In this document: in pieces, positions 39,039 through 42,864 of the stretch
How the letters are laid out: each line of letters starts with the position of its first letter
Numbering within the stretch: position 1 is the stretch's first letter
Origin: Octopus vulgaris
Taxonomy: Eukaryota
DNA length: 64,000 bases
Direction: 5' to 3'
Assembly: GCA_951406725.2 (NCBI GenBank)
Contig: OX597828.1
Location: forward strand, 12,214,001 to 12,278,000
Made by a program: the position numbers and the translations under genes
The notes under the pieces: model-generated
What the model was told of the DNA's origin: nothing
What the model saw: the letters and a program-made list of their open reading frames with translations, nothing else
Database searches by the model: none

Positions 39039-39550
39039 ATCACAATCAAGGAACGGCCATAATAGGCCATTCACCCACTAGAAATAACAGCCAAAGCTTT
39101 AACCGCAAAATAACATTAATTCCGTAAACCAGAGAAAATTAAAAAAACATTTACCCTGTAATTTCTTATACGATGCACCGTTTCATCTACTGTTTAATGG
39201 TAAACTAACCTGATTAAATTAAATCAAGCCAATCTTCCATAGGCCCTTAGATTCCTCAGTAAGAAATAGCCAGAACGGAACAGATATTTTCACGAGGCAT
39301 TTCCGTCCCTGCCTCGGCAATATCTGACCTAAAATTTTCAAATCATCGCACTCGTGCCAAATTTATCGGCAGCAAATAAATATAAGCCGCCGATTCCATT
39401 ACGGAATCAACCAGAAAATTCATAATTAATCAATATAGGGTGGCAAAAAAAAATTTTGTAGAATTTTTTTGCCACCAGCGGCCTAGTGGGAAAAAATTAA
39501 ATAGTCATAGACCATTTATAAGTTCAACATCACAATCAAGGAACGGCCAT
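39039..39550 (-). mobile_element. Inverted, circularly permuted copy (one unit plus ~22 nt) of the 491-bp hammerhead unit
   Basis: Reverse complement of 39920-40432; begins and ends with ATCACAATCAAGGAACGGCCAT. Confidence 0.92.
39161..39267 (-). ncRNA. Type I hammerhead ribozyme (inverted copy)
   Basis: Same motif as 39712-39818, on the minus strand. Confidence 0.85.
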
Positions 39551-39711
39551 TAATTATGAATTTTCTGGTTGATTCCGTAATGGAATCGGCGGCTTATATT
39601 TATTTGCTACCGATAAATTTGGCGCGAGTGCGATGATTTGAAAATTTTAGGTCAGATATTGCCGAGGCAGGGACGGAAATGCCTCGTGAAAATATCTGTT
39701 CCGTTCTGGCT

Positions 39712-39818
39712 ATTTCTTACTGAGGAATCTAAGGGCCTATGGAAGATTGGCTTGATTTAATTTAATCAGGTTAGTTTACCATTAAACAGTAGATGAAACG
39801 GTGCATCGTATAAGAAAT
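39712..39818 (+). ncRNA. Type I hammerhead ribozyme, unit 1 (predicted cut after 39810)
   Basis: Stem I ATTTCTTA/TAAGAAAT; core CTGAGGA; stem II ATCTA/TAGAT; GAAA; stem III ACGGT-GC-ATCGT; GTA triplet. Confidence 0.88.
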
Positions 39819-40202
39819 TACAGGGTAAATGTTTTTTTAATTTTCTCCTGGTTTACGGAATTAATGTTATTTTGCGGTTAAAGCTTTGGCTGTTATTTCT
39901 AGTGGGTGAATGGCCTATTATGGCCGTTCCTTGATTGTGATGTTGAACTTATAAATGGTCTATGACTATTTAATTTTTTCCCACTAGGCCGCTGGTGGCA
40001 AAAAAATTCTACAAAATTTTTTTTTGCCACCCTATATTGATTAATTATGAATTTTCTGGTTGATTCCGTAATGGAATCGGCGGCTTATATTTATTTGCTG
40101 CCGATAAATTTGGCGCGAGTGCGATGATTTGAAAATTTTAGGTCAGATATTGCCGAGGCAGGGACGGAAATGCCTCGTGAAAATATCTGTTCCGTTCTGG
40201 CT

Positions 40203-40309
40203 ATTTCTTACTGAGGAATCTAAGGGCCTATGGAAGATTGGCTTGATTTAATTTAATCAGGTTAGTTTACCATTAAACAGTAGATGAAACGGTGCATCGT
40301 ATAAGAAAT
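40203..40309 (+). ncRNA. Type I hammerhead ribozyme, unit 2 (predicted cut after 40301)
   Basis: Identical motif to unit 1. Confidence 0.88.
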
Positions 40310-40692
40310 TACAGGGTAAATGTTTTTTTAATTTTCTCCTGGTTTACGGAATTAATGTTATTTTGCGGTTAAAGCTTTGGCTGTTATTTCTAGTGGGTGA
40401 ATGGCCTATTATGGCCGTTCCTTGATTGTGATGTTGAACTTATAAATGGTCTATGACTATTTAATTTTTTCCCACTAGGCCGCTGGTGGCAAAAAATTCT
40501 ACAAAATATTTTTTTGCCACCCTATATTGATTAATTATGAATTTTCTGGTTGATTCCGTAATGGAATCGGCGGCTTATATTTATTTGCTGCCGATAAATT
40601 TGGCGCGAGTGCGATGATTTGAAAATTTTAGGTCAGATATTGCCGAGGCAGGGACGGAAATGCCTCGTGAAAATATCTGTTCCGTTCTGGCT

Positions 40693-40799
40693 ATTTCTTA
40701 CTGAGGAATCTAAGGGCCTATGGAAGATTGGCTTGATTTAATTTAATCAGGTTAGTTTACCATTAAACAGTAGATGAAACGGTGCATCGTATAAGAAAT
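40693..40799 (+). ncRNA. Type I hammerhead ribozyme, unit 3 (predicted cut after 40791)
   Basis: Identical motif to unit 1. Confidence 0.88.
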
Positions 40800-41184
40800 T
40801 ACAGGGTAAATGTTTTTTTAATTTTCTCCTGGTTTACGGAATTAATGTTATTTTGCGGTTAAAGCTTTGGCTGTTATTTCTAGTGGGTGAATGGCCTATT
40901 ATGGCCGTTCCTTGATTGTGATGTTGAACTTATAAATGGTCTATGACTATTTAATTTTTTCCCACTAGGCCGCTGGTGGCAAAAAAATTCTACAAAATTT
41001 TTTTTTTGCCACCCTATATTGATTAATTATGAATTTTCTGGTTGATTCCGTAATGGAATCGGCGGCTTATATTTATTTGCTGCCGATAAATTTGGCGCGA
41101 GTGCGATGATTTGAAAATTTTAGGTCAGATATTGCCGAGGCAGGGACGGAAATGCCTCGTGAAAATATCTGTTCCGTTCTGGCT

Positions 41185-41291
41185 ATTTCTTACTGAGGAA
41201 TCTAAGGGCCTATGGAAGATTGGCTTGATTTAATTTAATCAGGTTAGTTTACCATTAAACAGTAGATGAAACGGTGCATCGTATAAGAAAT
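41185..41291 (+). ncRNA. Type I hammerhead ribozyme, unit 4 (predicted cut after 41283)
   Basis: Identical motif to unit 1. Confidence 0.88.
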
Positions 41292-42864
41292 TACAGGGTA
41301 AATGTTTTTTTAATTTTCTCCTGGTTTACGGAATTAATGTTATTTTGCGGTTAAAGCTTTGGCTGTTATTTCTAGTGGGTGAATGGCCTATTATGGCCGT
41401 TCCTTGATTGTGATGTTGAACTTATAAATGGTCTATGACTATTTAATTTTTTCCCACTAGGCCGCTGGTGGCAAAAAAAATTCTACAAAATTTTTTTTTT
41501 TGCCACCCTATATTGATTAATTATATATATATATATATATATATATATATATATATATATATATATATATATATATATATACAATATATACAATATATAT
41601 AATATATATAATATATAATTTATAGGAATATATGCATATACATACATATATACATACATATGTGCATCCATACCTACATACATACGGAAACATGCATTTG
41701 CTCAAGTCATGGTTCTGAATTACAAAACAGTCATGCTTCGGGTCTGTCTTCGAAATTATCATTTTATCATCTTTTAGAGAAATCGTTATTGTTTTAACTT
41801 AGTTTCCATTTTACAAAACGGTAGCCATATTTTTGTTTAAAATTTGAATATTTCAACTTGAATAATTCTAATGTTTAAATTTTCACCTCATGACTGCTAT
41901 AACTGTTTAATTATTATTTTTGTTTTCTTGTGAAATTTATATTAGAGAGACTAATGTACTTCTTCCAATTTGTGTATCAAGAATAACAATTTGGCCAATG
42001 TTTTATTCATTAGATCTGATTTATCAAGTTTTTACTAAATTATATTTATTTTACAAGAAGCATCCAAAAAATCATTATTCAGTCTATCATAATCAGTAGT
42101 ACTCGAGCATTAGATTATGGTATCATAGCGTAAATAAAACCGAAATCAACTTCCGTTTATCCCTATCTTGGTATGCTTCGTTACTCCAGCTCATATTCAA
42201 GCTTATGTCTAAAAGACCTATTTATCAAAGACCTATTTATCAGAGATTAACAATTTAATCATAGGAAATATGTTCTTTTTTTTAATTTTCATATGAGTAC
42301 ATACAGATACATACAATCACAAATACATACTGAAATTCATAATATAACAAGGTTATGAAACGGCTGTAGTCATATGGAAGTAATGGCAAAATCTAACACC
42401 TGGCCTTCGCCTTTCACACCTCCTGGCTTAATACGTTAAATACATACATACATACATACATACATGCATGCATACATACGTACGTACATACATACATACA
42501 TACAAACATACGTACGTACGTACATACATACATACATACATACATGCATGCATGCATGCATACATACATACATACATACATACATACATACATACATACA
42601 TACATACATACATACATGCATACAAACATACATACATACATACATACATACATACATACTACTAAGAGCTTCACCAGATGAATTGCATGGTAATATTGGT
42701 TCTTGTCAGATAAAGAGCTATATAATTGTGTTTATAAACGAGAGATAGAATATGATGATTTAGGAAAGTAAATTGGATATAGGACATATGTATATATATA
42801 TATATACATATATATACATACAAGCACACATACAAACACACATATATATATGTATATTTCCTTT

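Follow-up and report, generated by a model that had tools for sequence, protein, structure and literature searches.

Insertions of Penelope-like elements (PLEs) are described as containing an inverted truncated copy and a tail of 30–40 bp, often at one end only, and as biased toward (TA)n (PMC8557442, PMC3846280). The reverse transcriptase (RT) of PAc has two internal start sites, one at each boundary of the tail and both downstream of the hammerhead cut; the enzyme, a predicted dimer that prefers AT-rich DNA, cuts and extends both strands, and in vitro its choice of start site is reported not to differ between the strands (PMC11167929). For metazoan non-LTR retrozymes, a circular template and mobilization by PLEs have been proposed (PMC7229834; 10.64898/2026.07.22.740005), and a circular template has also been suggested for PLEs themselves (PMC4209133).

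Here we analyze a 64,000-nt stretch of the Octopus vulgaris genome (contig OX597828.1, positions 12,214,001–12,278,000, forward strand; hereinafter, the window), in which two arms of a 491-nt hammerhead-bearing repeat stand head-to-head in (TA)n at 39039–41524. Judging from the sequence, this layout is the published inversion-plus-tail footprint of PLEs, here on a non-LTR retrozyme; the first-pass annotation of this DNA, which proposed twin-primed rolling-circle integration, did not mention PLEs. As in the PLE insertions of the cited texts, partial tandems truncated at the 5' side stand next to an inverted copy that is truncated likewise; the tail is present at one end only, insertion is biased toward (TA)n, and there are two internal starts downstream of the hammerhead cut. 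In contrast to PLEs, the retrozyme unit has no ORF and the tail is 107 nt long, compared to 30–40 bp; moreover, the PLE tail is called optional or "often at one end" in these texts, whereas the two retrozyme ends are paired in 113 of 125 two-armed insertions, with no like-with-like pairs.

With the metazoan retrozymes, as portrayed in PMC7229834 and 10.64898/2026.07.22.740005, the family shares a non-coding, low-GC tandem unit with one type I hammerhead each and dispersed copies. It differs in the length of the unit (491 nt vs. the quoted 150–450 bp), in the long extension of stem II, and in that most copies are two-armed, head-to-head, with two fixed ends in (TA)n. The word "inverted" is absent from the text available for PMC7229834 and appears once, in a reference title, in that of 10.64898/2026.07.22.740005; the text supplements of PMC11167929 contain neither "inverted" nor "tail," and the available text of PMC13282606, neither "hammerhead" nor "retrozyme." The component parts of the picture below are known; for the strict pairing of a short and a long end, and for a stop limited to the first pass, the article text searched revealed no published precedent.

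Our main reading, to which we assign a probability of roughly 70%, is that the insertion would have been written by a borrowed Penelope-like RT/GIY-YIG endonuclease, with one cDNA per cut strand and two fixed ends in a TA microsatellite.

Structure of the Insertion

Registers are counted from the first base 3' of the GTA cleavage triplet (register 1), the reference unit being the 491-nt copy at 39811–40301. The features of the locus, in window coordinates, are as follows.

38706–39040, no strand: left (TA)n target tract (TRF)
39039–39550, minus strand: short-end arm, registers 110 to 131, 512 nt (alignment to the unit)
39161–39267, minus strand: type I hammerhead motif of the left arm, predicted cut after 39169
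39549–39550, no strand: inversion junction, 2-nt overlap common to both arms (alignment)
39549–41524, plus strand: long-end arm, registers 230 to 238, 1,976 nt (TRF, alignment to the unit)
39712–39818, plus strand: type I hammerhead motif 1, predicted cut after 39810
40203–40309, plus strand: hammerhead motif 2, predicted cut after 40301
40693–40799, plus strand: hammerhead motif 3, predicted cut after 40791
41185–41291, plus strand: hammerhead motif 4, predicted cut after 41283
41415–41524, plus strand: hairpin-rich "tail," bounded by the two 3' end registers, 131 (short) and 238 (long)
41522–41661, no strand: right (TA)n target tract (TRF)

The short-end arm consists of one 490-nt unit and 22 nt, beginning and finishing in the same 22-mer, and the long-end arm, of four tandem units (490–493 nt) and 9 nt, or 7 nt if counted from 39551. 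The 3' ends of both arms, at registers 131 and 238, respectively, adjoin (TA)n, and neither arm ends at a predicted hammerhead cut. Hence the anatomy given in the first-pass annotation is reproduced by alignment and TRF in all its parts: a minus-strand left arm of one unit plus about 22 nt ending in the 22-mer that it named, a right arm of four units plus about 6 nt, different registers of the two arms, neither coinciding with the ribozyme cut site, and both ribozyme-sense 3' ends running into (TA)n.

The tail comprises 107 nt in the reference unit and 110 nt at this locus. The arms are 99.6% identical to the unit and differ from each other by private changes. The unit has a GC content of 36%, and its longest stop-free stretch is 61 codons, hence no ORF. 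As both flanks are (TA)n, a target-site duplication is not readable here. We regard the locus as a real, young retrozyme insertion with the inversion-plus-tail footprint of PLEs.

Both arms are close to a whole number of units. In a crude count over the family, 17 of 92 long arms end within 25 nt of an integer unit count (9.6 expected), while stops at one unit plus 1–30 nt, seen in 7 of 89 arms, do not significantly exceed the hazard-corrected expectation of 4.3 (P = 0.14). The indication that the near-whole-unit lengths at the window locus are more than chance is weak.

Hammerhead Ribozyme Motif

Every tandem unit bears one type I hammerhead motif, yielding five motifs in the window. Motif 1 has an 8-bp stem I, a 5-bp stem II with a long extension, and a short stem III with a palindromic loop; the latter feature has been described for animal type I hammerheads working as dimers (PMC4209133). 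No hammerhead match at the gathering score was obtained in the Rfam scan of the window, and the lowest-energy fold contains stems I and II only.

Among 287 ribozyme copies, matched by a pattern that leaves the first core heptamer free, CUGANGA is kept in 285, with all four bases occurring at N (position 7), and the cut triplet is GUA or GUC, again in 285. Compensatory replacements of A-U by G-C pairs in stems II and I are seen in a diverged subfamily. The ribozyme looks maintained in the family, and self-cleavage is predicted. An array of more than nine units of a diverged subfamily, with compensatory changes in both stems, occupies L096:1–4564; another insertion, a two-armed one, lies some 300 nt away.

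The only Rfam match in the window is a tRNA-like gene at 49464–49536 (43.9 bits), with the anticodon loop reading GTC. The window also contains a decayed, frameshifted LINE with endonuclease and RT domains (9440–12375), two 184-bp tandem copies, 94% alike (53088–53449), and two related tandem arrays of ~148 bp, some 42 kb apart and ending in A runs (8186–8528 and 50020–50407), in which the pattern scan found no hammerhead.

Census of Genomic Copies

In the 2.8-Gb genome, 1,378 candidate places for the unit were found. Set A consists of the 40 best matches, the ones scored; selection by similarity biases it to young, long copies, and not to particular ends. Set B comprises 72 insertions at 69 loci of contig 1, anchored on one exact short or long end. 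Set C adds 40 loci absent from the other sets; these are anchored on an exact short end, and the tests for them were fixed in advance. Weak matches (L058, 39 nt; L118, 69% identity) were dropped before counting. By these data, the family is estimated to be many hundreds of young non-coding copies, about a thousand young natural products.

Out of 152 insertions in the three sets, 125 are two-armed and head-to-head, and 27 are one-armed. Their 3' ends form two classes, the short end at registers 124–137 (mode 131) and the long end at 231–246 (mode 238), while the inner (5') ends are scattered round the unit. As the census ends cluster at 131 and 238, the two registers of the window arms are the two fixed ends of the family. 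The expectation in the first-pass annotation that a linear template would give other copies one fixed start and end is thus borne out for the 3' ends, of which there are two fixed ones, and not for the 5' ends, which vary.

The two ends are distributed one to an arm: 113 of the 125 two-armed insertions have one of each, and none has two alike. The remaining twelve contain off-register ends, accounted for by an assembly gap, disrupted or deleted ends, and one old copy. In set A, 32 of 40 insertions are two-armed: 29 of these are short+long, 3 have a single off-register end, and none is like-with-like. Thus, all 29 classifiable pairs are mixed, P = 2e-9 under coin-flip choice, with the end classes having been defined after viewing this set. 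The same is seen in set B (58 of 72 two-armed, 51 short+long, 0 like-with-like) and set C (35 of 40, 33 and 0, respectively), where the anchored end is pre-selected, so that only the partner end tests the pairing. Each end type also occurs singly among the 27 one-armed copies. Genome-wide, exact junctions number 418 for the short end and 681 for the long one, compared to none for the control.

The preference for TA, suspected from the window alone, holds for the family: in the 40 unselected insertions of set A, 69 of 72 outer ends adjoin (TA)n, compared to 4.4% of background window positions. It does not follow that pairing with TA selects the start. The earlier suggestion was that both ends prime wherever AU-rich points pair with (TA)n, with registers varying from copy to copy. 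Indeed, the ends merge into TA with a match of 2–3 nt, and a few off-register ends lie in TA (L040 at 205, L130 at 69, L189 at 228). However, 69 of 72 unselected 3' ends fall in the two narrow classes, one per arm in 113 of 125 insertions; the matches to (TA)n at the used registers are of only 2 and 3 nt, while eight registers with matches of 4–5 nt are almost unused; and there are 0 like-with-like pairs in 125. Choice of start sites by primer pairing is therefore rejected, and as a general rule the AU-rich proposal is refuted by sets A and C; we give it almost no credence.

The census also bears on the possibility that the inversion is an assembly or chimeric-read artefact, or a DNA-level rearrangement of a satellite. 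The junction at 39550 is that of the assembly. Nevertheless, in the tabulation of copies that the first-pass annotation had called for, 125 insertions scattered over many contigs repeat this layout, fixed ends included, while their junctions and variants differ from one insertion to the next, so that the inversion is not a quirk of one locus; moreover, the two window arms differ by private changes, and an unrelated PLE has the same layout. An artefact is very improbable.

Head-to-Head Junctions and the Number of Primings

Junction statistics were computed for the 109 two-piece short+long insertions out of the 125 two-armed ones. The central observation is that in 28 of them the arms are non-nested, and neither arm can be a copy of the other, in agreement with the original claim of two primings joined head-to-head. 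Arms of the same insertion are nevertheless closely related, their median divergence being 0.5%, compared to 3.1% to other insertions (69 insertions). In L064 the arms differ at a subfamily marker, so two templates may have been used there, or one arm converted. Thus, with exceptions such as L064, both arms of an insertion appear nearly always to come from one source.

Alternatively, a single cDNA could snap back and be copied into an inverted repeat by self-priming, with the second fixed end produced by the cut of a resolving endonuclease. Such fold-back would yield the rule of one end of each type with no second priming, and several features agree with it: rare variants are common to both arms, arm lengths correlate (Spearman 0.48), and in 36 of 109 junctions (10.4 expected; 17 of 33 in set C) both arms stop within 20 nt of the same register, mostly with the long arm equal to the short arm plus ~100 nt. 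Yet these near-palindromic junctions may also be formed by run-off at a common 5' end of the RNA, as 11 of the 36 are at registers 1–30. A fold-back copy should lie within the other arm, and in 28 of 109 insertions it does not, so pure fold-back cannot make these; the frequency of nesting does not exceed that in permutations (20 non-nested insertions out of 76, vs. 21.4). Furthermore, both end types occur alone, in the one-armed copies, and both boundaries of the tail are, in the text available for PMC11167929, in vitro initiation sites for PAc. Fold-back may contribute to some insertions, and as the general explanation it is improbable.

Twin priming is well supported; its form differs from that of LINE-1. 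In LINE-1 twin priming, both target strands prime, and the head-to-head junction shows microhomology. If this happened here on one template, the first cDNA would halt where the second primer anneals. The head-to-head geometry and short overlaps at the junctions (at least 1 nt in 43 of 76) are as expected. On the other hand, 5' ends are not enriched at the start of the partner arm (8 vs. 4.8 and 4 vs. 4.8), a further test for collision again gave no excess, and collision of one arm with the start of the other was rejected; the arms often span the same registers, both starts are fixed and internal, and there is no poly(A). We consider this variant very unlikely, and retain priming from two fixed internal starts.

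Probable Templates: Linear and Circular RNA

Out of 218 arms, 141 cross a cut site, 327 of the 331 crossings are of exact length, and the longest arms reach nine units. The window locus, with one and four turns, belongs to this multi-turn class. Template jumping between cut monomers was rejected, as the crossings bear no scars. For variants found in 4–10 insertions, 88 of 117 cases with at least three copies have the variant in all units of the array; for commoner variants, the corresponding figure is 240 of 253. Seamless multi-unit arms with variants in all units fit a single monomer copied over and over, as would happen on a circle, which we consider the likely template.

Rare variants confined to some units are observed in 33 cases. 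Within arrays, variants recur with period 2 (L066, L103) or period 3 (L078), or form mosaics (L035, L065); over these five loci, recurrence is at 2, 3, or 5 units. A monomer circle does not give such patterns. They require either templates of more than one unit, possibly dimer or trimer circles, or subsequent exchange between units, possibly unequal.

The second line of evidence is the position of stops. Stops in registers 1–30 are seen for 31 of 171 arms during the first pass and for 5 of 119 during later ones (Fisher P = 2.6e-4; since the two arms of an insertion are not independent, arm-level P values here and below are optimistic). The later-pass value is at background (5 vs. 5.6 expected), and in the 30 nt that follow the interval only 7 of 140 arms stop. 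The excess was conceived on sets A and B (23 of 152 vs. 10.6 expected) and replicated in set C (13 of 66 vs. 4.8, P = 9e-4). Among 17 intervals compared, stops are in excess in registers 1–30 alone, an AT-rich stretch over which they are spread rather than falling exactly at 1. In 11 of 109 insertions both arms stop there. That the excess is limited to the first pass speaks for a mixture of linear and circular templates rather than for a sequence hot spot or partly cut multimers; the data suggest that both cut linear and circular RNAs are in use. The rolling-circle template of the first-pass annotation stands in part: a multimeric or circular template is supported, and a rolling circle indirectly so, while some of the insertions appear to derive from linear RNA cut by the ribozyme.

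The rival here keeps twin priming and dispenses with the circle: every template would be a linear transcript of a genomic array, multimeric and in part self-cleaved. The first-pass stops at the ribozyme cut do point to linear templates, unit-specific and periodic variants exist in some arrays, and, in the text available for PMC11167929, PAc takes unprocessed RNA in vitro, the ribozyme being dispensable. But partly cleaved multimers should also produce later-pass stops at the cut, which are at background; subfamily markers fixed in all units (88 of 117 and 240 of 253 cases, above) require repeated regeneration from one monomer; and 5'-truncating copying alone would shorten the arrays. We consider an exclusively linear template unlikely, and the mixture of cut linear and circular RNA is retained in what follows.

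Autonomous Penelope-Like Elements in the Same Genome

A GIY-YIG search of the genome, with 150 of 6,136 candidates scored, revealed a young autonomous PLE with a 781-aa ORF containing RT and GIY-YIG, to which 19 of 20 fetched loci belong. At all 19 loci the element runs into (TA)n at one of two points, position 456 or 496, which delimit a 40-nt tail, and inverted copies have one end of each type in three cases out of three. This PLE (L169:930–6172, also L170–L187) has a unit of ~4.8 kb and many copies of ~98% identity; a 479-aa frame with no Pfam family overlaps the start of the 781-aa frame. No canonical hammerhead was found in loci L169 or L185.

No DNA similarity to the 491-nt unit was detected at the 20 loci round long GIY-YIG frames, and at 30 other GIY-YIG loci the similarity was limited to weak AT-rich matches and, next to L141, a fragment of the retrozyme 53 nt long. 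The PLE protein has no tblastn match in the window; its matches lie near 10 of 108 retrozyme loci searched. As this PLE shares no DNA with the repeat, it shows the class of the enzyme, not the partner, and among the PLEs searched no mobilizing partner was found.

This fragment (L141:345–397) contains the short end, and only several TA bases lie between it and an inverted PLE arm, on the outer side of the latter; it possibly represents a nested insertion or a mixed-template event. Visual inspection of the PLE family of L139 and L141, distinct from the dominant one, likewise suggests two ends, one short and one longer.

Proposed Mechanism and Implications

In the scenario that we favor, the enzyme, probably a dimer, would cleave both strands within (TA)n, one DNA 3' end then beginning to copy at register 238 and the other, at register 131; the protein or the structure of the RNA, and not primer pairing, would determine the start register. 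A single RNA molecule, or sister molecules from a common source, would serve both cDNAs. The template would mostly be a circle, giving arms of up to nine units, seamless over the cut site; in approximately one insertion out of ten it would be a ribozyme-cut linear RNA, with both cDNAs running off its 5' end. The cDNA 3' ends would be joined via short microhomology or a few filler bases, and failure of the second cDNA would leave a one-armed copy.

More tentatively, and with somewhat less than even confidence, the same scheme could be extended to Penelope-type integration as such: it would be an obligatorily asymmetric twin priming, in which a dimer assigns one strand to each end of the tail on the same RNA, fed by cut linear RNA and by circles copied up to nine turns.

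How PLEs make tandem and inverted insertions and the tail is stated to be open in PMC8557442, and copying of retrozymes from circles by PLE enzymes is, in PMC7229834, a proposal; the family described here bears on that question. It offers countable predictions, namely, two start registers, one per strand, run-off at the cut, and seamless circles of many turns. If the asymmetric twin-priming reading is true, the genome records the form of the template in each event, and these insertions would be the first in-genome evidence of rolling-circle reverse transcription of an animal circular RNA.
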